Source: Escherichia coli (lineage in GTDB: Bacteria; Pseudomonadota; Gammaproteobacteria; Enterobacterales; Enterobacteriaceae). Taken from it: a stretch of 64,000 bases of DNA. The DNA is taken from the NCBI RefSeq assembly GCF_003334815.1, contig NZ_QOWO01000016.1, one strand, 5' to 3'. Both the position numbers and the translations under genes were made by a program. Under the pieces are notes generated by a model. That model was given only the letters and a program-made list of their open reading frames with translations, was not told the origin of the DNA and ran no database searches. Within the stretch, counting starts at the first letter, position 1; every line of letters starts with the position of its first letter. Positions 2,905-55,935 of the stretch are shown here, piece by piece.

Positions 2905-3402
2905 TCAGGAAATGAAGTTCAGCCCCTGCTTTAACACCAGATCGCAGGCTTTGGTTTTCACCTTTTCTGCCAGCGGAGTCGTTCCGATGTTATCCAGATT
3001 GAGTTGCTGACCATCTTTGGTTTTCAGCAAACCCTGAATACCGTCCAGATAGTTGGTGTCTTCTTTTTGCTCTTCACTGTTCAGGCCCAGCTTTTCCAGC
3101 ACCTGATTCTTGATGTTTTCGGCATCGGTTACCGAAGCCAGCTTTTGCTTCGCGCAGTATTGCAGAATGCCTGCGGCGTTGTTCATGTTATCTGCGCTTA
3201 AGGCCTGGTTCCCGCTGCTAAGCAAGTTAGTTAATGACGCGAGCGACCAACCGCCTTCCTGTGTCGTGCTGTTTTGGTTGCCAAGTTCGCTGGCGGCGCT
3301 GGAGAGCGCATCTTTCCAGGACGCAGCATGCACCCCGGTGGAAATTAATGCGCTGGCGGCAATGGCACAGCACAGAAGATGTTTAACAGTTTTCATCATC
3401 AT
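2905..3402 (-). CDS. yjjA: Secreted protein YjjA (DUF2501)
   Basis: 165 aa ORF with an N-terminal signal peptide (ending VHAAS); synteny next to dnaC. Confidence 0.6.
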   Translation of the reverse strand: MMMKTVKHLLCCAIAASALISTGVHAASWKDALSSAASELGNQNSTTQEGGWSLASLTNLLSSGNQALSADNMNNAAGILQYCAKQKLASVTDAENIKNQVLEKLGLNSEEQKEDTNYLDGIQGLLKTKDGQQLNLDNIGTTPLAEKVKTKACDLVLKQGLNFIS

Positions 3403-3447
3403 TACTCAAGGTGGAATTGTGTCGCAGTATACCGCCAGAAACGGGGA

Positions 3448-4185
3448 TTAATACTCTTTACCTGTTACACGGCTACGGTAGCTATCCCAGTTGAAGATCA
3501 CCCACAAACTGTTACCCAGGCGCATACGGTCCATCACGCGTTCGCCCAGCAACTTGGTCATCTCTTCCATATTACTGTTGGTCAGCATCCCGGTTGGGCG
3601 TTTGGAAGAAGAGCGGCGATCGACGATCTGGTTGATGATCACTTTTTCGTATTTCGATTCGGTCTGCACGCCGATCTCATCGATCACCAGCAGATCAACG
3701 TTGCTCAGATCGTTAAGCAGTTGTTCTTCGCTGGTACCGCTATTCCTGAAGGTATCTTTCATCGCCGACATAATATCGGCCACGGTGATGATCAATACGG
3801 ATTTACCGCGTAGCAGCAGCTCGTTGCAGATTGCCGCCGCCAGATGGTTTTTGCCGGTTCCTGGCTTACCAGAAAAGATGAAGCTGGCGATGTTGCCGTC
3901 AAACTCTTCGACATACTGGCGCGCTTTGCTTAACGCATTCATCTGCCCTTCACACTCAACGCGATAGTTCTCAAAGGAGCAGTTCTGATGCAGTGGACGA
4001 ATACCGGAGCGGTTAAAGGTGCGCTGCATTTTCATCGCCCGATTTTCACGTTCGAGAGCGGCGGAGCGGATCGCCCCTTGTTCTTTCTGCCAGGCCAGTA
4101 GTTCTTCACCCGTTTTAAACGCAGGTTTGATATGGGCAGGCATCATTTTTTGCAGGCGTTGCATCAGGTCGCCAACGTTTTTCAT
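3448..4185 (-). CDS. dnaC: DNA replication helicase loader DnaC
   Basis: 245 aa; Walker A motif GKPGTGKNH; IstB-like AAA+ fold; sits directly upstream of dnaT. Confidence 0.9.
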   Translation of the reverse strand: MKNVGDLMQRLQKMMPAHIKPAFKTGEELLAWQKEQGAIRSAALERENRAMKMQRTFNRSGIRPLHQNCSFENYRVECEGQMNALSKARQYVEEFDGNIASFIFSGKPGTGKNHLAAAICNELLLRGKSVLIITVADIMSAMKDTFRNSGTSEEQLLNDLSNVDLLVIDEIGVQTESKYEKVIINQIVDRRSSSKRPTGMLTNSNMEEMTKLLGERVMDRMRLGNSLWVIFNWDSYRSRVTGKEY

Positions 4186-4187
4186 CG

Positions 4188-4727
4188 TTACCCTCTGAAT
4201 CCTGGTGGAATTTGGCTGTCAGGTTCGCTGACCGTATTCACATCTCGTTTCGGCAGTCCGCCGTTGCTGGCACGGCCGATTTGCAGGCTGCGCGCCAGTT
4301 TTTGTTGCCACTGTACATGGTGAAAGACTTTACCTTCCGCCTGCCAGTAGGCAATGAATGAGGCCAGTTCTTCGGTGGTCACCGGCTCTCTTAGCGCCAC
4401 GCCCCATAGCGCCGCCAGGCGGATAAAGTCGGCATCGGGTTGCCAGTCCGGATACATGGCGAATTTCCCCATGGGTACAGCAACGGGAGCGGCTTGCGGT
4501 TCCTGATAGAGTTGATCGTCCAGAGCGACATCGCTTCCCGGACGCGCCAGCTTTTCTTCCAGCGCCAGCAGTTCAGCCAGGCGTGCAGGCGTGACGGCAT
4601 AAAACGCCGGGGCATTGTTAGCAAATACGGCAACCACACCGCCTTCAGCTTTTGCCAGAACGGTTTGGTGATCGTGTACCAGGGCGTCAATACCAACGAC
4701 GTCCGGGGTCAAAACTCTGGAAGACAT
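4188..4727 (-). CDS. dnaT: Primosomal protein DnaT
   Basis: About 179 aa from the MSSRVLT start; C-terminus ends SQIPPGFRG; forms an operon with dnaC. Confidence 0.8.
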
Positions 4728-4834
4728 ACTGTTTCTCAAATATGGAACGATGAACGAGAAGGGAGATAACTTTTATAGTAACACATGGAGGAGAGGAGGC
4801 TGTCTCTCATCCGTGTGCTTTAAGCGAGGCAATT

Positions 4835-5308
4835 TTATACGCGAGGGCGCTTGCGGTACAACCATAATCCAGGAATGGAAAGACCGATGGATAACGCACC
4901 AACAATCGATGAAGCTGTAAGAAAGTTGGTTAACAGGGTAATCATCAATGACTCGCTGTAACCTAACTGGCTGATTTTTACCGCCGAAATCATTGCGGTA
5001 TAAGCCGATATGCCAGGGAACATAGGGATAACGGCCGCCACGGTAAACACTTTCGGATGCGCCAGATACCAGCGCGACCATTGAATACCAATGGTGCCGA
5101 CCAGCATAGAAGCCATAAAAGTTGACCACTCAATATTCAGCCCGCTGGTCATTAAGATCATTCGTGAACCATGACCAATCGCGCCAAGCAGCGCACACCA
5201 GCGTAACGCCCGAACGGGAACGTTGAACACCATCGCAAAGCCGACCGCTGGAATGGCGGCGAGGATCATATCCTGCGCCAATGTAAACAGAAACTCGATC
5301 ACACCCAT
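4835..5308 (-). CDS. yjjB: Inner membrane protein YjjB (ThrE-family C-terminal half)
   Basis: Hydrophobic ~157 aa ORF, immediately downstream of and overlapping yjjP. Confidence 0.65.
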
Positions 5309-6069
5309 CCGCGTAGCCCCCAAATCGTCAGTGCCATCACCACGCCGACGCAGGTAGCCAGTGTCAGCAGACTGGCGATCGCCCAGCGTGCCAGTCCGGT
5401 ATTGATGTGGCCTTTAAACATATCGGCGACGGCATTAATCAACGGAAAGCCCGGCACCAGCAGCAGAACGCTGGCGGCCATCGCGATGGTGGGGGTATTG
5501 CTGAAAGTAGGGAGTTGCAAAAGCAATCCGGAAATGGTGGTGGCGGCGAAAGCGGTAAGGCAAAAGTTGATCTGTGGATGAAGATGACGTTGTGCCAGCA
5601 GCTGGCGGATATACATCGCGGCCGTACTGGCAAAGAAGGTGATGACGGCACCATCCCAGCCACCTTTATTGAGTTTACAGAAACAGGCGCAGGAAAGGCC
5701 AACCATTAAGGCTACCAGCCATCTTGGGTAACGTAATGGCTGAATTTGGCTAAATCGTTTCTCTACGCCTTTGTAATCCAGCAGATGGTGCTCCGCCAGA
5801 ATCACAATGTGCTGGACTTCAGTCACCACATGCATATTAATGCCGCGATCTTGATTTTTACGTGTCGATGTCAGGCATTGCCCATCTTTAATGGTTGTCA
5901 GCACTATGGCGTTCGAAGAGATAGAACTTTCGACGCTGTCCATCCCCAACGCCCGACCCAGTCGTGAGGAAAGCTCATCAACCAACGCGCTTTCCGCACC
6001 ATGTTGCAAAAGAAATAATCCACACTGGATACAAAGCCGTGTTACGGCTCGCTGTTGCTCAGTTTGCAT
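5299..6069 (-). CDS. yjjP: Inner membrane protein YjjP (ThrE-family)
   Basis: Multi-pass membrane ORF; the likely start is an internal Met of the 277 aa frame; conserved synteny. Confidence 0.65.
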
Positions 6070-6687
6070 AACTCGCCCTTTGTCATAGACGTGCTGCGTA
6101 TTGTTCAGATAATGAGAATCCATTTGTATCATGAAGCACGGTAGTTTTGCGGTAGGTTAAGATCAAAATTGCGCTGATTAATCCTGGTTATCGGGACAAG
6201 CTCGGTGATAAAAAGGGAATTATCTCTCGCCGCAAACAAATTATCACATGAATATTATCACTATAATGAATTTATTCTTTAGCCTTTACGAATCAGGATA
6301 AAAGATAACTGGGCGCGTTTTTTAATTTTTACAAGTTAAAACTATCAGATTTTATTGAACAAATATTGATTGTGTGATTTTGCATTCTGCGGGAAGGGAT
6401 ATCAGTTAATTATAAATTAAATGAATGAGAACTCTGTTTTTCATTAAGTATTTCTAACAACTTAATGTAGATATTTTAAATGTCTCCAGGCTATTTCAAC
6501 AGGTTATCATTTGATGCTAACCTTCTGACACATGCTGTGGAGTTGTTGTGCAGCAGGAGTATGCTGATATGAAAGTGAATGCTAAGGATAATTTATTCGC
6601 TTAATCTATTAATTTGCTGGAAACATTTAAGGAATGAATATCCTGAATAAACCATCATGATTTTTAGACAGTGGATGTGGAGGAAAT

Positions 6688-7413
6688 ATGTTGCCAGGAT
6701 GCTGCAAAAATGGAATTGTTATCAGTAAAATACCTGTTATGCAAGCAGGGTTAAAAGAGGTCATGAGGACTCACTTCCCTGAATATGAAATAATATCCAG
6801 CGCCTCTGCGGAGGACCTTACCTTATTACAATTACGTCGTTCCGGATTAGTCATTGCTGATTTAGCCGGTGAAAGTGAAGATCCACGTTCTGTTTGTGAA
6901 CATTATTATTCTTTAATCTCACAATATCGGGAAATTCACTGGGTTTTCATGGTGTCACGCTCCTGGTATTCCCAGGCAGTAGAACTGCTCATGTGCCCTA
7001 CGGCGACGTTATTGTCTGATGTTGAACCCATTGAGAATCTGGTCAAGACCGTACGTTCCGGCAATACGCACGCAGAGCGTATCAGCGCCATGCTGACCTC
7101 TCCGGCAATGACTGAAACTCATGATTTTAGCTATCGCTCCGTCATTCTCACTCTTTCAGAGCGCAAGGTACTGCGGCTATTAGGTAAAGGATGGGGCATC
7201 AACCAGATAGCTTCATTGCTTAAGAAAAGTAATAAAACTATCAGCGCCCAAAAAAACAGTGCGATGCGTCGACTGGCAATTCACAGCAACGCTGAAATGT
7301 ATGCATGGATAAATAGCGCGCAGGGTGCAAGAGAACTTAACTTGCCTTCTGTTTATGGAGATGCCGCAGAATGGAACACAGCCGAATTAAGAAGAGAAAT
7401 GTCGCACTCATAG
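6688..7413 (+). CDS. yjjQ: LuxR-family transcriptional regulator YjjQ
   Basis: 241 aa with a C-terminal LuxR/FixJ-type HTH; AT-rich upstream region; overlaps bglJ. Confidence 0.75.
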
Positions 7414-8048
7414 AAAAATGCGTCATGAGCAGTATCGGTATTGAGAGTTTATTCAGAAAGTTTGCAGGTAACCCTTATAAGCTCCATACCTATACCAGTC
7501 AGGAGTCATTTCAGGATGCCATGTCGCGGATCTCGTTTGCGGCGGTCATTTTTTCTTTTTCTGCCATGAGAAGTGAACGCAGAGAGGGATTATCTTGCCT
7601 GACTGAACTGGCGATTAAGTTTCCGCGTACCCGACGTTTAGTTATTGCGGATGATGATATTGAAGCTCGGCTGATCGGTTCATTGTCGCCATCACCGCTG
7701 GACGGTGTATTAAGTAAAGCGTCAACGCTGGAGATTTTTCATCAGGAACTCTTTTTGTCATTAAATGGTGTACGTCAGGCGACCGACCGACTGAACAATC
7801 AGTGGTACATTAACCAAAGCCGGACGCTAAGCCCGACGGAGAGAGAAATATTGCGCTTTATGTCGCGTGGCTACTCAATGACACAAATTGCCGAGCAGCT
7901 TAAACGCAATATTAAAACGATCCGTGCACATAAATTTAATGTGATGTCGAAACTGGGCGTCAGTTCTGATGCAGGGTTGTTGGAGGCCGCAGATATTCTG
8001 TTATGTATGCGGCATTGCGAAGCAAGTAATGTGTTGCATCCCTATTAA
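7371..8048 (+). CDS. bglJ: LuxR-family transcriptional activator BglJ
   Basis: 225 aa with a C-terminal LuxR-type HTH ([27 protein letters not shown]); operonic with yjjQ. Confidence 0.75.
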
Positions 8049-8085
8049 TTTGCATGATGCCGGGTTTACTTCCCCGGCAGTGCTT

Positions 8086-8874
8086 TCATTTCAGCGTACA
8101 ATCGCCACATTGCTGCACATCCGGTAAGCGATAACGCTGGCAGCAAGTGCGGCGCACCAGCAGGCCGTCGCGCAGCACCACGGTACGCCAGAGTGGATTA
8201 TCTTCACCGTTCGTGAGCGTTTTCTCAAAAAAGAGGGCATGGCGCAGCGATTCAACCGTCGCCTCGCCGAGCAGCTGTTTCATCTCAGTCAGATACCAGT
8301 TGATCAAATAACCGGTATTGCTCCAGATAAGTTTACCGTTAATCTCTCCCGTTGCTTCTAGTGCCTGCACAACCGGAACAAGCGCCTGGCTGATTAACGT
8401 TTCCATTCGCTGCTGCGGCGAATGTAGTGTTGCGTTTTTATCTTCACACACATCGACCCAGAAACAGGCGGCGCGTCCGGTTTCGTGAAACTCAACGTGG
8501 AAATGTTCCGGCGTCACATCTAATGCTTTTTCCTGCGTCAGCAGCGCCAGCATTAATGGTGGCACCATCAGGCCGATATACCATTGTGCCCACAGTGAGA
8601 TCAGCGGCTTGTTCTCGCGGATCATCGTTGGTTGGTTGCGGTAGATATGATCGGAATAGACCGCCAGTAGGGAACTTAGCGTATTCGGTGATGACCATTG
8701 CGCCAGCGTCATGGCGCGAAGCGGGGCGGGTTCATCCAGACGGATAAACTCCAGCAAATGTTCACGATGTTCGGCGATCGTCGCACGTACGGCTTGTGCA
8801 AGCCCAGCATCCTGTGGCTGGAGATGCGTTCGCCAGATGATATCTTCATAGAGCGGTGCGGAACGATAGGCCAT
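8086..8874 (-). CDS. fhuF: Ferric-siderophore reductase FhuF
   Basis: 262 aa with the unusual C-terminal 2Fe-2S cysteine motif CC-x10-C-x2-C (RRTCCQRYRLPDVQQCGDCTLK). Confidence 0.8.
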   Translation of the reverse strand: MAYRSAPLYEDIIWRTHLQPQDAGLAQAVRATIAEHREHLLEFIRLDEPAPLRAMTLAQWSSPNTLSSLLAVYSDHIYRNQPTMIRENKPLISLWAQWYIGLMVPPLMLALLTQEKALDVTPEHFHVEFHETGRAACFWVDVCEDKNATLHSPQQRMETLISQALVPVVQALEATGEINGKLIWSNTGYLINWYLTEMKQLLGEATVESLRHALFFEKTLTNGEDNPLWRTVVLRDGLLVRRTCCQRYRLPDVQQCGDCTLK

Positions 8875-8889
8875 AATCGGGATAGTAAT

Positions 8890-9000
8890 CTAAATGATAA
8901 TGATTGCTAATCCTAGCGATAGGTTTACCCGATAGCAAGGGATTTCTCTGGCTTGCAAATGATAAAAATTATCATATGATATTGGTTATCATTATCAATG
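8890..9000. promoter_or_regulatory. Divergent fhuF/yjjZ promoter region with Fur-box-like sites
   Basis: Three elements resembling the Fur consensus GATAATGATAATCATTATC: AATGATAATGATTGC, TGATAAAAATTATCA and GGTTATCATTATCAATG. Confidence 0.45.
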
Positions 9001-9014
9001 AAAGAGATGAAACC

Positions 9015-9251
9015 ATGTTGCAACGTATGCTGGGCAGTGGCTGGGGAGTGTTGCTGCCGGGATTGCTGATTGCAGGGCTGATGTATGCGGATTTATCGCC
9101 GGATCAGTGGCGGATTGTCATTCTGATGGGATTAGTATTGACGCCTGTGATGCTGTATCACAAACAGTTGCGGCATTACATTTTGCTACCATCGTGCCTG
9201 GCGCTTATTGCTGGCATCATGCTGATGATAGTGAATTTGAATCAGGGATGA
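9015..9251 (+). CDS. yjjZ: Small membrane protein YjjZ
   Basis: About 78 aa hydrophobic ORF from the internal Met (MLQRMLGSGWGVLLPG...), divergent from fhuF. Confidence 0.5.
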   Translation: MLQRMLGSGWGVLLPGLLIAGLMYADLSPDQWRIVILMGLVLTPVMLYHKQLRHYILLPSCLALIAGIMLMIVNLNQG

Positions 9252-9289
9252 CAAAACAGGGAAGAAACAAGAAAGGAAGTAAAGATAAT

Positions 9290-9376
9290 TGGTGCGAGGG
9301 GGGGGACTTGAACCCCCACGTCCGTAAGGACACTAACACCTGAAGCTAGCGCGTCTACCAATTCCGCCACCTTCGC
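9290..9376 (-). tRNA. tRNA-Leu (anticodon CAG)
   Basis: Reverse complement reads GCGAAGGTGGCGGAATTGGTAGACGCGCTAGCTTCAGGTGTTAGTGTCCTTACGGACGTGGGGGTTCAAGTCCCCCCCCTCGCACCA: a long-variable-arm cloverleaf with CAG anticodon and encoded CCA. Confidence 0.9.
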
Positions 9377-9480
9377 ATACCATCAATTCTTAAAAAGAAT
9401 TGCTACCACGGAGGCGCATTCTAGTGGTTTTCAGCTTTTCGTCAATAGTTAATTATCGCCGGAGGTGTAATTGCTGGAAA

Positions 9481-9676
<196 letters not shown>

Positions 9677-11653: not shown

Positions 11654-12331
11654 ATGAAGTGGGACTGGATTTTCTTTGATGCCGATGAAACGCTGTTTAC
11701 CTTTGACTCATTCACCGGCCTGCAGCGGATGTTTCTTGATTACAGCGTCACCTTTACCGCTGAAGATTTTCAGGACTATCAGGCCGTTAACAAGCCACTG
11801 TGGGTGGATTATCAAAACGGCGCGATCACTTCATTACAGCTTCAGCACGGGCGGTTTGAGAGCTGGGCCGAACGGCTGAACGTCGAGCCGGGTAAACTCA
11901 ACGAAGCCTTTATTAATGCGATGGCGGAAATCTGTACGCCGCTGCCGGGAGCGGTTTCTCTGCTTAACGCCATTCGTGGCAACGCCAAAATCGGCATCAT
12001 CACCAACGGTTTTAGCGCCTTGCAACAGGTGCGTCTGGAACGCACGGGCCTGCGTGATTACTTCGATTTGCTGGTGATTTCCGAAGAAGTTGGCGTTGCT
12101 AAACCGAATAAGAAAATTTTCGATTATGCGCTGGAACAGGCGGGCAATCCTGACCGTTCACGCGTGCTGATGGTTGGCGACACTGCCGAGTCCGATATTC
12201 TCGGTGGCATCAACGCCGGGCTTGCGACCTGCTGGCTGAATGCGCACAATCGCGAGCAACCAGAAGGCATCGCGCCCACCTGGACCGTTTCTTCGTTGCA
12301 CGAACTGGAGCAGCTCCTGTGTAAACACTGA
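11654..12331 (+). CDS. yjjG: HAD-family pyrimidine 5'-nucleotidase YjjG
   Basis: 225 aa with the HAD motif [10 protein letters not shown] at the N-terminus. Confidence 0.8.
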
Positions 12332-12421
12332 TTGCCTCCCCCCCGTTGATGGGTAAAATAGCCGCAATTTTTCGTTTTCAACAAGCGCGGCGCGATGCCG
12401 CTTACTCAAGAAGAAAGAATT

Positions 12422-12496
12422 ATGACGTTGTCTCCTTATTTGCAAGAGGTGGCGAAGCGCCGCACTTTTGCCATTATTTCTCACCCCAATAATTAA
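12422..12496 (+). pseudogene. prfC: Displaced native 5' end of prfC (24 codons) left at attL
   Basis: Encodes [22 protein letters not shown] then NN-stop; the first 22 residues match the RF3 N-terminus as I recall it, and the frame breaks exactly at the att core. Confidence 0.7.
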
Positions 12497-12716
12497 GCCC
12501 AAATTAAAGCTCTTTTACTCTTTCAAAATCCTTTCAGTTAATTGAGGTTGAGCTATATAACTCATTTAAATACATTTGGTTATGTAGCTTCTTTAATTGA
12601 AAATTCTTTCATGTAACTTTAAATCGATCAGTTTGCTTTCATCAAAAATCTGTACATATGCTTGTACATAATGTACAAAACAGCAGAGGTGTTTTGCGAT
12701 TTGTACAAGGTGAGTA

Positions 12717-13940
12717 ATGGCGCTGTCTGATGCGTGGTTGCGTTCAGTCGTTGGAAAGGAACGTGATAAGGTTTTGGTTAAATCCGATCGTGATGGTCTG
12801 TCTGTCAGAGTATCACCGAAAGGTCGCGTAGTGTTCCAATATCGTTATCAATGGGCAGGGAAAGGTGAGCGTCTTGATATCGGAACTTACCCGGCAACTG
12901 GATTAAAAGAGGCCAGAGAAGAAGTTATCCGTCTCCGTGGTGAACTTGAGTCAAACCGTAATCCACGATTGGTCAAGCAGGCTGAAAAACGAAAAGCTAC
13001 TGAAGCCATGACGGTAGAGTCTGTGATCCGTGCCTGGTATGAAGCATATTGTGTAAAAAATAAAAAAGGTTCTGAACAGATACTCCGCTCGTTTGAGCTG
13101 CACCTGTTCTCTAAAATCGGGAATATCCCTCACGATGCAGCTACATTGCATGATTGGTTAGAAGTCCTGGAGCCTCTTAGCACTAAGACTCCAGCAATAG
13201 CAGACCGATTGCTAATTAACGCAAAGCAGGCCCATGTCTGGGCGTATAAGAGAAAGCTCATTGAAACTCGCCCGCTGTCGGATATCACGGGTAAAGATAT
13301 GGATATCCGTAAAGGTCAGAAGAAACGGTTTCTGACACATGATGAAATTAAAATCCTTTATGCTGCGATCGATGGTTCTCGAATGGTTCCTAAATACCGG
13401 GCCTTCATTAAGCTATTGCTGCATTTTGGCTGCCGTAGTTCAGAGCTAATTACTGCCAGGGTGGACGATTTTGATTTCATTAATAAGGTATGGACTGTAC
13501 CACCAGAACGACATAAGACTGGAGAGATAACAGGCGAACCGCTAAAGAGGCCCATTATTGAACCGGTGGAGGAGCTTATAAAGAACGCTATCTCTATGAA
13601 CAATGGTTCCGATATGCTTTTTACTAAGGAAGGAAGCAGGGAACCCGTTGGTCGAACATCATTGCAGTCGCTGCCTTACAATTTAATGCAGTACGCATGG
13701 AGGCGTTTGGGGCATCAATTCCCTCATTGGTCTCTTCATGATTTGAGGCGAACAGCACGAACAAACTTTTCTGATCTTACTGCTCCTCATATTGCAGAAA
13801 TAATGCTCGGCCATAAACTGCCAGGGGTTTGGCAGGTTTATGACAAGAGCGATTATCTAGAAGAACAGCGTAAAGCATATCAGGCATGGTGGGAGAGAGT
13901 TGAATCGATCGTTACTTGTACTGGCCCAGAATCTACCTGA
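12717..13940 (+). CDS. Tyrosine integrase (P4-type, DUF4102 arm-binding N-domain)
   Basis: 407 aa; ATG with upstream AAGGTGAG; catalytic-domain residues (R...HDLRRT...Y); adjacent to attL. Confidence 0.85.
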   Translation: MALSDAWLRSVVGKERDKVLVKSDRDGLSVRVSPKGRVVFQYRYQWAGKGERLDIGTYPATGLKEAREEVIRLRGELESNRNPRLVKQAEKRKATEAMTVESVIRAWYEAYCVKNKKGSEQILRSFELHLFSKIGNIPHDAATLHDWLEVLEPLSTKTPAIADRLLINAKQAHVWAYKRKLIETRPLSDITGKDMDIRKGQKKRFLTHDEIKILYAAIDGSRMVPKYRAFIKLLLHFGCRSSELITARVDDFDFINKVWTVPPERHKTGEITGEPLKRPIIEPVEELIKNAISMNNGSDMLFTKEGSREPVGRTSLQSLPYNLMQYAWRRLGHQFPHWSLHDLRRTARTNFSDLTAPHIAEIMLGHKLPGVWQVYDKSDYLEEQRKAYQAWWERVESIVTCTGPEST

Positions 13941-14190
13941 CAGCTTGCGTAGCCCTGACAGTCTGTTTTGAGCGAACAGTGGACATTTTCAATGGCATTC
14001 TTGAGTAGGTTACGCTTAGACCAGAAGTAAGAGGTGATAGAATTATCAACAATACATAAAACATAGGGGATCCTTATTGATTTATTGATCTTGACCAACT
14101 TATGTGATGCAGTATGTCTTTAACTTGTATTACTATTATCTTTATCTTGTTGTTTCTAATAAACTTATCTTATTTCAGAAAGGAGTTTTT

Positions 14191-15891
14191 ATGCATTTAG
14201 TCACGAAATCTTATTTCGATGCCTTTTGCAAAGCATTCGCTGCGCCCTATGAGGAGACCAAAAATTTTGAGGCGTTTGTGAACTATTGTGCTTTTTCAAA
14301 ATACTCAGGCGACAAAGTTGAGGTCAGTGATCTTGTGTATGAAGGCCCGGACCCTGGTATTGATGGCGCATTTTTATTTTTAGACGACAGAGCAATTTTT
14401 TCAACTGAAGAACTTCAGGAGATTTTCCAAAACTCACGTCGCGAGTTTCAAGTTTCATTAATATTCACGCAAGCTAAGTCATCGGAGAAGTGGAGCAAAC
14501 AGGAAATAGACTCTTACATTGCGTCAATAAGAGATTATCTTTCACCAGCGCCACAACAACCCCACAGTGAATATCTAGCGGACTTTAAAAAAATGTTCAA
14601 CTTGATATTTGCTAATATCGGCAGAGTCAAAAATGGCCTTCCAGACTTATACGCATATTTTTTTAGTGCTGCACAAAATACAGAGGCCAGAGAAATAAAA
14701 GCTGCATTTGCATCGGGTGAAAAAAGCTTAAAGTCACTCGGGTTTTCACATGAAACATCCTTCATTATGGCTCACAAAGACATGATTCATGAGCTTTGGC
14801 TTGCTGCGGAAGGTCCAATAGAAGCTAAACTTCCTACAATAGGCTATGCTCCATTCCCAGCGGCCCCTAATATTAATAATGCCTATGTAGCTACAGTCAA
14901 AGCTCGTAGTTTTATTGATTCTATACTTAAAGACAAAAATGGAAACCCTCGAAAAAAATTATTCGAAGAAAATGTTAGAGATTTTCTGGGAATTGATGGT
15001 GACGTAAATTCAGAAATTGCAGGAACACTAGATACTGATGGAAAAAAAGCAAGATTTGGTTTAATGAATAATGGAGTGACAATAGTTGCATCAAGCGTGA
15101 GGCCTGCAGGACAAGAAATTTTTATACGAGATTTTCAAATTGTTAATGGATGTCAAACGTCTAATGTTCTTATATCAAAAGACATTCAAGTAGATGAATC
15201 AGTTAGTTTAATGATTAAATTAATTGAAACCGATGAGCCAGCGATCCTTGATGACATTGTACGAGCTACGAATAGACAATCTAAAGTTGAAGATGCACAG
15301 TTCATTTCAACGCTAAAAAAATTAAGGGAATTAGAGCATTATTTTAATGCTAAAGGTGCTATTGAAGGAAATAAAATTTATTTTGAGAGAAGAAAGGGGC
15401 AGTATAGTTCAGAAAGTATAGCTCCAGTACGCATATTTGATATCAGAGAAGTTGCGCGAGCATATGCTGCTATTGTTATGATGAGACCAGATTATTCCAG
15501 TCGTTATCCAAATAGGTTAACTGGTGACTTACTTAATGAGGTTTTCTCTTCCGATGCCCTCGAGGATGATTATTATATATCTTGCTATTGCTTGTATAGG
15601 CTAAAGGCTCTTATCTCAAATAAGAGGTTTGATGGGAAGTATTCAAAATTACGCTGGCATATTCTAACTGCTGCGTCAAAATACTGTGGTAATAATTATA
15701 AGGTTTGGGGGTTCAAAAATAAAAATGAAGCTCTTCATAACTTATTCTCAATGAATGATGGGGAGTGGTTTGAAAAACTTGAGAGTTTAGTAAAAATAGC
15801 TATACCAGATCCGGATATTTCTCGAGACTTACTAAAGTCGCAGCCTTTAACATCAACGATTCTCAAAAGTGTTGATAGCGTACCTAAATAA
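14191..15891 (+). CDS. Large AT-rich cargo protein, possibly AIPR-like abortive-infection family
   Basis: 566 aa from the ATG preceded by AAAGGAG; visibly AT-rich; followed by hairpin GGGAAGCTTATTGCTTCCC. Family assignment is tentative and unverified. Confidence 0.4.
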   Translation: MHLVTKSYFDAFCKAFAAPYEETKNFEAFVNYCAFSKYSGDKVEVSDLVYEGPDPGIDGAFLFLDDRAIFSTEELQEIFQNSRREFQVSLIFTQAKSSEKWSKQEIDSYIASIRDYLSPAPQQPHSEYLADFKKMFNLIFANIGRVKNGLPDLYAYFFSAAQNTEAREIKAAFASGEKSLKSLGFSHETSFIMAHKDMIHELWLAAEGPIEAKLPTIGYAPFPAAPNINNAYVATVKARSFIDSILKDKNGNPRKKLFEENVRDFLGIDGDVNSEIAGTLDTDGKKARFGLMNNGVTIVASSVRPAGQEIFIRDFQIVNGCQTSNVLISKDIQVDESVSLMIKLIETDEPAILDDIVRATNRQSKVEDAQFISTLKKLRELEHYFNAKGAIEGNKIYFERRKGQYSSESIAPVRIFDIREVARAYAAIVMMRPDYSSRYPNRLTGDLLNEVFSSDALEDDYYISCYCLYRLKALISNKRFDGKYSKLRWHILTAASKYCGNNYKVWGFKNKNEALHNLFSMNDGEWFEKLESLVKIAIPDPDISRDLLKSQPLTSTILKSVDSVPK

Positions 15892-16129: not shown

Positions 16130-16324
16130 TTACTCAATAACTCCAGCAAATCTGTATATCTTGCATGATGCCCATTTATTTGGGCAGGATTTAATATCAG
16201 GATCTGGAAAGTCAGGCCTGTATTTCTGGCCAGTTCTCCTGTTTACGCTGTTCCAGCGAAGAACAGTCGATACTGAAACGCCACAGAAGTCGGCGACTTG
16301 TTTAGTTGTCATTAAGTTGTTCAT
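16130..16324 (-). CDS. AlpA-family HTH regulator / excisionase-like protein
   Basis: 64 aa with an MerR/AlpA-like HTH (TTKQVADFCGVSVSTVLRW). Confidence 0.6.
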   Translation of the reverse strand: MNNLMTTKQVADFCGVSVSTVLRWNSVNRRTGQKYRPDFPDPDIKSCPNKWASCKIYRFAGVIE

Positions 16325-53880: not shown

Positions 53881-54129
53881 TTAGTGAACAAACCACTCGT
53901 CAGCAGACTCCCAGGTATCTTTCAGAGTTTCCTGAACAAAAGTTTTAGCTGAATCTTTATCGGCGGTGCGCGTAACAGAAAGGCCATCGTTGCTGGTGGC
54001 TTTTACGATCACCTCTACATCGTCATAACGCTTACTGATGCGTCGAGTTAATTCTTCCTTTAACGCATCCACAGCACCGTTTGGCATTTTAGTCATTTTC
54101 TCTTTAGCTATGCAGATCTCAATACGCAT
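53881..54129 (-). CDS. dinI: DinI-like protein (RecA coprotease modulator)
   Basis: 82 aa; [11 protein letters not shown] ... [17 protein letters not shown] resembles DinI over its whole length. Confidence 0.75.
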
Positions 54130-54348
54130 AAAAATCCCTCTACACTGTGTTTGTATACAGTGTTATTTTTAACTGTATAAATAAACAGTGTCAATGGAAC
54201 AAAGATTGCTGCATGTACAAATGTTCTTTGGCTACAAATACACCTACTGATCATGTTCTGCTATGCTCTGATACCTCCAAAATGTACAATCAGCGGCATG
54301 AATTTTTCTTTGTACATATGATTGTACATAATTAAAGAGACAACAATT

Positions 54349-55935
54349 ATGACAAGCCTTTTGGCCGCAGAGGTAGCGAAAAGAAGAACCTTTGCAATTA
54401 TTTCTCACCCGGACGCCGGTAAAACTACCATCACCGAGAAGGTGCTGCTGTTCGGACAGGCCATTCAGACCGCCGGTACAGTAAAAGGCCGTGGCTCTAA
54501 CCAGCACGCTAAGTCGGACTGGATGGAGATGGAAAAGCAGCGTGGGATCTCCATTACCACGTCTGTGATGCAGTTTCCGTATCACGACTGCCTGGTTAAC
54601 CTGCTCGACACCCCGGGGCACGAAGACTTCTCGGAAGATACCTATCGTACCCTGACGGCGGTGGACTGCTGCCTGATGGTTATCGACGCTGCAAAAGGTG
54701 TTGAAGATCGTACCCGCAAGCTGATGGAAGTTACCCGTCTGCGCGACACGCCGATCCTCACCTTTATGAACAAACTTGACCGTGATATCCGCGACCCGAT
54801 GGAGCTGCTCGATGAAGTTGAGAACGAGCTGAAAATCGGCTGTGCACCGATCACCTGGCCGATTGGCTGCGGCAAGCTGTTTAAAGGCGTTTACCACCTT
54901 TATAAAGATGAAACCTATCTCTATCAGAGCGGTAAAGGCCACACCATTCAGGAAGTCCGCATTGTTAAAGGGCTGAATAACCCGGATCTCGACGCTGCGG
55001 TTGGTGAAGATCTGGCGCAGCAGCTGCGTGATGAACTGGAGCTGGTGAAAGGCGCGTCTAACGAGTTCGACAAAGAATTGTTCCTTGCGGGCGAAATCAC
55101 TCCGGTATTCTTCGGTACTGCGCTGGGTAACTTCGGCGTTGATCATATGCTGGATGGCCTGGTGGAGTGGGCACCTGCGCCGATGCCGCGTCAGACTGAT
55201 ACCCGTACTGTAGAAGCGAGCGAAGACAAATTTACCGGCTTCGTATTTAAAATTCAGGCCAACATGGACCCGAAACACCGTGACCGCGTGGCGTTTATGC
55301 GCGTGGTATCCGGTAAATATGAAAAAGGCATGAAGCTGCGCCAGGTGCGCACTGCGAAAGATGTGGTGATCTCCGACGCGCTGACCTTTATGGCGGGCGA
55401 CCGTTCGCACGTTGAAGAAGCGTATCCGGGCGATATCCTCGGCCTGCATAACCACGGCACTATTCAGATCGGCGACACCTTTACCCAGGGTGAGATGATG
55501 AAGTTCACTGGTATTCCGAACTTCGCGCCGGAACTGTTCCGTCGTATCCGCCTGAAAGATCCGCTGAAGCAAAAACAGCTGCTCAAAGGGCTGGTACAGC
55601 TTTCCGAAGAGGGCGCGGTGCAGGTGTTCCGTCCGATCTCCAACAACGACCTGATCGTTGGTGCAGTTGGTGTGCTGCAGTTTGATGTGGTGGTATCGCG
55701 CCTGAAGAGCGAATACAACGTTGAAGCAGTGTATGAGTCAGTCAACGTTGCCACTGCCCGCTGGGTAGAATGTGCGGACGCGAAGAAATTCGAAGAGTTC
55801 AAGCGTAAGAACGAAAGCCAACTGGCGCTTGATGGCGGCGATAACCTCGCTTACATCGCTACCAGCATGGTAAACCTGCGCCTGGCGCAGGAACGTTATC
55901 CGGACGTTCAGTTCCACCAGACCCGCGAGCATTAA
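54349..55935 (+). CDS. prfC: Peptide chain release factor 3 (with phage-derived 5' end)
   Basis: 529 aa translational GTPase ([13 protein letters not shown]1 motif); first ~17 codons differ from the attL remnant; att core lies within codons 20-24. Confidence 0.9.

Follow-up and report, generated by a model that had tools for sequence, protein, structure and literature searches.

TGTACA repeats on both arms of the attachment site of a prfC-targeting prophage are likely arm-type sites for its SXT-cluster integrase

The arm-type sites of phage lambda Int (P1, P2, and P'1 to P'3) serve a heterobivalent tyrosine integrase; both arms of attP carry copies of a short motif that bears no relation to the core, some of them as adjacent direct repeats. 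In the KplE1 (IntS/TorI) and P4 (Int/Vis) systems, int is the first gene inside attL, reads outward from the core, and has arm-type sites directly upstream; both integrase genes are repressed by their own product (PMC2951348). These two elements use tRNA genes as targets, and P4 Int is a member of the DUF4102 "IntSXT" subgroup (PMC8138268). Integrative and conjugative elements (ICEs) of the SXT/R391 family target the 5' end of prfC and supply a replacement 5' end (PMC8138268; PMC2791158); their int gene lies far from attP, inverted and convergent with xis, and both genes are driven by SetCD (PMC4542580). The integrases of the HPI and HAI7 islands, for which arm-binding domains have been solved (PDB 3jtz and 3ju0), target asn tRNA genes. 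Characterized excisionases, such as Gifsy-1 Xis, use one multipartite site on a single arm (PMC2603039). No earlier description of the arm sites reported here, or of the arm sites of IntSXT integrases, was found in the literature searched, although one may exist.

The whole stretch of DNA that was analyzed (the window; 64,000 nucleotides) contains a prophage of approximately 42 kb in the 5' end of prfC, with the host genes rsmC, holD, rimI, and yjjG on its left and prfC and osmY on its right. The 14-bp identity core of attL (ATTATTTCTCACCC, positions 12473 to 12486, plus strand) closes the native prfC 5' remnant, which begins at the ATG at 12423, and the matching core of attR (54397 to 54410, plus strand) lies inside the functional prfC gene. 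The element brings its own replacement 5' end (54349 to 54396, plus strand), which belongs to the P arm and in phage cdtI is contiguous with left-arm sequence. The rebuilt, full-length prfC starts at a new ATG at 54349, and its first 16 codons differ from those of the native gene. The same 14-bp core is annotated as an insertion duplication in records of Stx2c phages. The layout of attP was verified with phages cdtI (a circular genome), Ayreon, and 2H10, in which the right arm runs straight into the left arm around a single 14-bp core; reading from the P side, R1 to R4 come first, then the replacement prfC 5' end and the core, and, after a further 164 bp, L1 to L4 and int. A core of the form ATnATnTCnCACCC accompanied by an element-supplied replacement 5' end is present here, and the same core form was found in all of the relatives inserted at prfC.

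The first gene of the prophage is int (12717 to 13940, plus strand), which begins 230 bp past the core on the same strand and reads away from it. Its product, a heterobivalent tyrosine integrase that falls in the SXT cluster, has an N-terminal arm-binding domain (PF13356, Arm-DNA-bind_3; residues 3 to 90; E = 5e-16), a central domain (PF22022), and a catalytic domain (PF00589), and it also matches phrog_1. The N terminus matches the solved HPI and HAI7 arm-binding domains, which belong to the same Pfam family and align over 80 to 96 N-terminal residues (E = 1.4e-6 and 2.5e-4, respectively). In a published classification, the integrases of cdtI phage and SXT fall into one prfC-targeting cluster within the DUF4102 IntSXT subgroup (PMC8138268). 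The excisionase (recombination directionality factor) gene xis is at 16130 to 16324 on the minus strand (phrog_1553; E = 3e-34); the protein is annotated as an excisionase in phage 2H10. A gene for a 595-amino-acid AIPR/Abi-like abortive-infection protein (14104 to 15891; phrog_1841; E = 2e-70) lies between int and xis in the window, unlike in relatives, where xis directly abuts the 3' end of int.

The locus shares with lambda a heterobivalent tyrosine integrase and a core-unrelated motif repeated in adjacent copies on both arms, and here too DNA bending would be needed for function, as would an excisionase to run the reaction backward. It differs from lambda in that the motif is TGTACA, with a palindromic center, and in that the N-terminal domain is of the Arm-DNA-bind_3/DUF4102 family; moreover, the P' sites are much farther from the core (164 bp) and int reads away from the core, so that the sites occupy its upstream region. 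The position and direction of int match those of KplE1 and P4, and the target differs; the host promoter upstream, that of native prfC, here points into int. The target, the replacement 5' end, and the integrase cluster are shared with SXT/R391 elements, whose Int is 39% identical and whose int gene is arranged and activated differently.

In a sequence-only reading of this DNA, four TGTACA motifs had been reported inside attL, upstream of int, with a similar set inside attR. Both sets were present and the motif strings quoted in that reading match the sequence, with hexamers starting at 12651, 12663, 12672, and 12702 on the left (L1 to L4; 66, 54, 45, and 15 bp, respectively, upstream of the int ATG at 12717) and at 54214, 54283, 54311, and 54323 on the right (R1 to R4). 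On the P' arm, L1 (12651 to 12656) and L2 (12663 to 12668) form a plus-strand pair, cTGTACAta followed by tTGTACAta, that begins 164 bp past the core. L3 (12672 to 12677) is an extra copy overlapping the flank of L2, and L4 (12702 to 12707, plus strand), 39 bp past L2, abuts the int Shine-Dalgarno sequence (TGTACAAGGTGAG) 15 bp 5' of the ATG. On the P arm, R3 (54311 to 54316) and R4 (54323 to 54328) form a plus-strand pair of two tTGTACAta copies; R2 (54283 to 54288), 28 bp upstream of R3, is an extra copy read on the minus strand as ATTGTACAT, and R1 (54214 to 54219) is the outermost copy. From their flanks, both adjacent pairs are direct repeats of TTGTACATA with a 12-bp period. The proposal that placement was symmetric about the two cores did not hold, since the right-hand pair ends 68 bp from its core and the left-hand pair starts 164 bp from its own.

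The number of TGTACA copies in the whole window was ordinary (15 observed versus 11.2 ± 3.4 expected); their distribution was not, with 8 of the 15 confined to two stretches (12651 to 12707 and 54214 to 54328), four inside 60 bp on the left and four inside 120 bp on the right. Windows simulated with a first-order Markov model (n = 150) never contained more than two copies per 120 bp. A model trained on both AT-rich arms (31% GC) gave a mean of 0.33 copies per 449 bp versus the 8 observed. Native prfC upstream regions, as seen in attL remnants, contained no TGTACA, indicating that the motif belongs to the element.

Conservation was examined in seven Int homologs with their flanks, chosen by protein similarity (51 to 84% identical) and constituting the sole sample unbiased with respect to the motif. 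The homologs were from Salmonella (84%), Pantoea (83%), Xenorhabdus innexi (64%), Serratia (61%), Erwinia (55%), Vibrio (52%), and Morganella (51%), and all except that of Morganella were inserted at prfC. The DNA between core and int was essentially unalignable among these relatives. A perfect TGTACA-N6-TGTACA pair was nevertheless present in six of the seven, with a degenerate pair in Erwinia, so that the motif, which on the sequence-only reading should recur in relatives using the same attachment site, was found in prfC-site relatives. In five of the seven, the perfect pair was accompanied by an additional TGTACA by the ribosome-binding site; this site was lacking in Morganella, whereas Erwinia had a perfect copy of it. 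Five of the seven loci (6 to 7 kb each) had no TGTACA besides these sites, and the Vibrio locus had one further copy. In an alignment of eight P' arms, the invariant columns were the core, the pair, the int-proximal site, the start codon, and a few isolated positions.

Two scans that preselected the motif, and which hence show its breadth and geometry rather than its frequency, extended the range of hosts. A species-level scan (one genome per species) for the 22-mer TGTACA-N6-TGTACATAAT yielded at least 80 loci. Among the 80 listed, at least 12 matches lay within 80 bp upstream of an Int homolog (32 to 63% identity); the hosts of these Int-linked matches, among those listed, were Xenorhabdus, Photorhabdus, Serratia, Marinomonas, five Acinetobacter contigs (four species), an Enterobacteriaceae metagenome-assembled genome (MAG), and E. 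coli. At least three more of the matches listed, in E. coli, X. ehlersii, and Budvicia, were just 5' of a prfC start supplied by the element. Metagenomes were scanned for the pair with ATnATnTCnCACCC in the following 62 to 74 bp, which also gave at least 80 loci; among the 80 listed, at least 76 were attR junctions, with PrfC 53 to 100% identical to the E. coli protein, and at least 2 were attP sequences with the integrase 223 to 224 bp past the core. Viral contigs scanned with integrase alignment provided solely E. coli prophages 97 to 100% identical and hence of no use for footprinting, and pattern scans of viral contigs found no P arms other than those of E. coli type. Another of the metagenome loci listed, on a soil contig (L251; Ga0137410_10002303, 3300 to 9540), was a very small GC-rich element in prfC (approximately 6 kb) for which the contig spans both ends; it encodes a 48% identical integrase and has the complete set of TGTACA sites at attL and attR.

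The distances between sites and core were also retained. On the P arm, E. coli, X. ehlersii, and Budvicia all had 68 bp between the second hexamer and the core, despite a 3-nt shift of the new prfC start codon, and in the metagenome matches this gap was 66 to 71 bp with a mode of 68 to 69 bp (65 of the 81 listed matches at 68 or 69 bp; 62 distinct sequences). On the P' arm, the pair started 163 to 164 bp past the core in six enteric lineages (E. coli, Salmonella, Pantoea, two Xenorhabdus lineages, and Serratia), 154 bp past it in locus L263, 143 bp in the ICE R997, and 132 to 134 bp in Vibrio, Marinomonas, and locus L252; these steps of approximately 10 bp are near whole helical turns. The proximal site trailed the pair by 38 to 40 bp across relatives. 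A logo of 53 distinct P arms showed both members of the pair to be flanked alike, as (T)G-TGTACA-(W)A, which indicated that the two members repeat directly, with a period of 12 bp. An inverted-repeat arrangement, hinted at by some Acinetobacter flanks, was ruled out by the same logo.

Not all eight copies were equally conserved. L4, in the form TGTACA(c)AGGTG at -11 to -37 (mostly -15 to -19) from the start codon, was kept in most relatives (Enterobacterales, Vibrio, Marinomonas, Acinetobacter, L251, and L263) and was missing, with the pair alone retained, in Photorhabdus, the Enterobacteriaceae MAG, and Morganella. L3 was limited to E. coli, Salmonella, and Pantoea; R2 occurred outside E. coli-type P arms only in one near relative (L241), and R1 was confined to E. 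coli-type arms. Within E. coli, 23 distinct P' arms (90 to 99.6% identical) had 52 variable positions, none of them in the four hexamers versus approximately 5 expected by chance. In 12 distinct P arms, there were 20 variable positions, of which 1 was in R1 (54215; 4 of the 12 arms) and none were in R2 to R4. R1 is thus polymorphic and is probably not a functional site. Since R1, R2, and L3 are limited to particular lineages, the conserved set consists of L1, L2, L4, R3, and R4.

Two further elements helped to discriminate between readings. R997 is an SXT/R391 element with an Int 39% identical, in which int is inverted, converges with xis, and is separated from attP by approximately 1.7 kb. 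On its P side, a TGTACA pair is found 69 to 75 bp before the core, directly upstream of the element's prfC start; past the core, the opposite arm has a TGTACA (143 bp) and a one-mismatch AGTACA (156 bp). The sites of R997 flank the core even though int is 1.7 kb away, which indicates that they follow the core and not the int gene. The R997 record (L336/L337; NZ_KY433363, with the junction across the record origin) has a further pair approximately 380 bp past the core, upstream of xis, and an abundant marine metagenome group shares the sequence of the R997 P arm.

The Salmonella phage SW-37 (L004; CP051275, 1193 to 1500) has an Int that is 46% identical and targets lepA (EF4), carrying a mimic of the lepA 5' end (MKNIRNFSIIAHID; 84% identity with E. 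coli lepA across 45 nt). Members of the clade thus insert at the G1-motif codons of translational GTPase genes that are paralogs of one another, and they restore the 5' end of the target. SW-37 keeps the 68- and 134-bp distances and the 12-bp pairs, with the hexamer changed to TGTCCA/TGGACA on both arms. A switch of the hexamer on both arms is what would be predicted if one protein reads both. The SW-37 N-terminal domain departs from that of the TGTACA group at conserved positions (S29W, Q41F, R52K, and D54T), and a tie between these replacements and the hexamer switch, seen in a single lineage, is only suggestive.

These comparisons make it likely that L1, L2, L4, R3, and R4 are arm-type sites for the N-terminal domain of the prophage Int. 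As is characteristic of such sites, the integrase has a separate arm domain, the motif is distinct from the core and lies on both arms of attP, and motif and spacing are conserved together while the arms diverge. The sequence-only reading had left open whether the motifs are integrase or excisionase sites; the integrase alternative is favored for these five copies by the conserved geometry on both arms and by R997 and SW-37, and the excisionase alternative has become less likely. We infer from sequence comparison that Int is the binder and that it would act as a bridge, with the N-terminal domain on an arm site and the C-terminal domains on a core site. Bending of the AT-rich DNA would bring arm and core together in a complex that integrates at prfC and, with Xis, excises. 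No copy of the IHF consensus WATCAANNNNTTR was present in either arm. CTTTCA occurs four times on the same strand in the P' arm between core and L1 (12520, 12531, 12606, and 12636; 30 copies on that strand in the window), and Salmonella, Pantoea, and Xenorhabdus partly retain those at 12606 and 12636; the four copies are candidate accessory sites, for either an excisionase or a protein that bends DNA. Other repeats, of the form CTAAGRCA, occupy the core-to-L1 interval in Acinetobacter, Marinomonas, and Vibrio.

The arms are only 31% GC and the total of TGTACA in the window is not elevated, as might be expected if the clusters were chance repeats in AT-rich intergenic DNA. Clustering of this degree was never reached in the simulations, however, and the sites are kept across genera in otherwise unalignable DNA; the comparative data already refute a chance origin, the probability of which we consider negligible. 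That the repeats bind Xis rather than Int is a more substantial proposal. Xis, as an excisionase, is a DNA-binding protein; the sites of excisionases typically consist of direct repeats set close together (PMC2603039), and a palindromic hexamer would equally suit a dimeric helix-turn-helix protein. A homolog of xis adjoins int in Salmonella, Pantoea, Xenorhabdus, Serratia, and Erwinia, and since the Xis homolog always accompanies Int in the enteric relatives, co-occurrence cannot separate the two binders there. The single multipartite one-arm site used by excisionases of the Gifsy-1 type was not what was found, as the repeats occupy both arms and three places. Xis homologs were detectable only in the enteric relatives, and BLASTP detected none in the Vibrio, Morganella, Acinetobacter, L251, L252, and L263 loci, which have the sites, although fast-diverging excisionases could escape such a search. 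Int is favored as the binder because it is the sole protein recognizably common to all of the site-carrying elements and because known excisionases are one-armed; binding by Xis in its place is improbable.

It was also considered whether the repeats form a purely transcriptional module, an operator or promoter for int and for rebuilt prfC with no role in recombination. Their positions would be appropriate, as L1 to L4 lie within 66 bp of the int ATG and R3 and R4 are 20 to 38 nt before the new prfC ATG, and the offset from the int start is similar in many relatives. In R997, however, TGTACA still surrounds the core with int 1.7 kb away and inverted, three elements with prfC starts that differ by 3 nt all place the P pair exactly 68 bp from the core, and no sigma-70 promoter was predicted. 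We regard an exclusively transcriptional role as at least as improbable as binding by Xis. A LexA box was rejected as an identity for L1-L2, which reads CTGT-N8 followed by TTGT and not ACAG.

An additional effect of Int bound at these sites on transcription of int is a possibility that we rate a little short of even. L1 to L4 fill the last 66 bp before the int start, so that bound Int would probably lower its own expression, as described above for KplE1 IntS and P4 Int, which are likewise arranged. Since int reads away from the core, any promoter of its own must be within the 230-bp P' arm, and a promoter scan of 12400 to 12800 predicted no sigma-70-like promoter for int. The native prfC promoter region, together with a 21-codon prfC remnant that ends in a TAA just past the core (12330 to 12716), is aimed through attL into int, and no terminator was predicted between that promoter and int. 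In a lysogen, int may be transcribed from this host promoter.

At attR, the end of R4 is separated from the phage-supplied ATG by 20 nt and from the core by 68 bp, so that prfC transcription must start at or upstream of R3-R4. These hexamers can reasonably be taken to overlap the promoter of rebuilt prfC, itself putative since the scan found no plausible sigma-70-like promoter on the prfC strand, and from the leader or promoter they could influence prfC. The sites in the rebuilt leader suggest a route by which the element could affect release factor 3 (RF3). A broader proposal, that the arm sites also serve as regulatory switches through which this host translation factor responds to whether the element is free or integrated, appears doubtful. 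If it were true, a P-arm promoter would read through the core into int in the free form, while in the integrated form the P-arm promoter would drive rebuilt prfC and the native prfC promoter would read into int; through R3-R4 and L1-L4, bound Int would then govern RF3 as well as the amount of Int itself, and the same logic would apply across the clade, including the elements that rebuild lepA.

From sequence alone, one hexamer and one geometry appear to be common to an SXT-related clade of phages, ICEs, and small islands in hosts from enterics to soil bacteria, which is notable. The recognition code, approximately KTGTACAWA with a fixed attP geometry, would apply to a large clade, among whose members are the cdt phages, the Stx phages, and the resistance elements of the SXT/R391 family. 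Such a code would allow attP and the ends of elements to be predicted from sequence and would pinpoint the bases to mutate in order to block or retarget integration. SW-37, with TGTCCA and lepA, would represent a natural specificity swap that could be used to map how the arm domain reads DNA.

A dinI-like gene (53881 to 54129, minus strand; NCBIfam DinI, E = 4e-19) was also observed near the right end of the prophage. Two LexA-box-like palindromes, CTGTGTTTGTATACAG and CTGTATAAATAAACAG, are present upstream of it at 54144 to 54191. This gene looks like an SOS-regulated moron by attR, divergent from rebuilt prfC.
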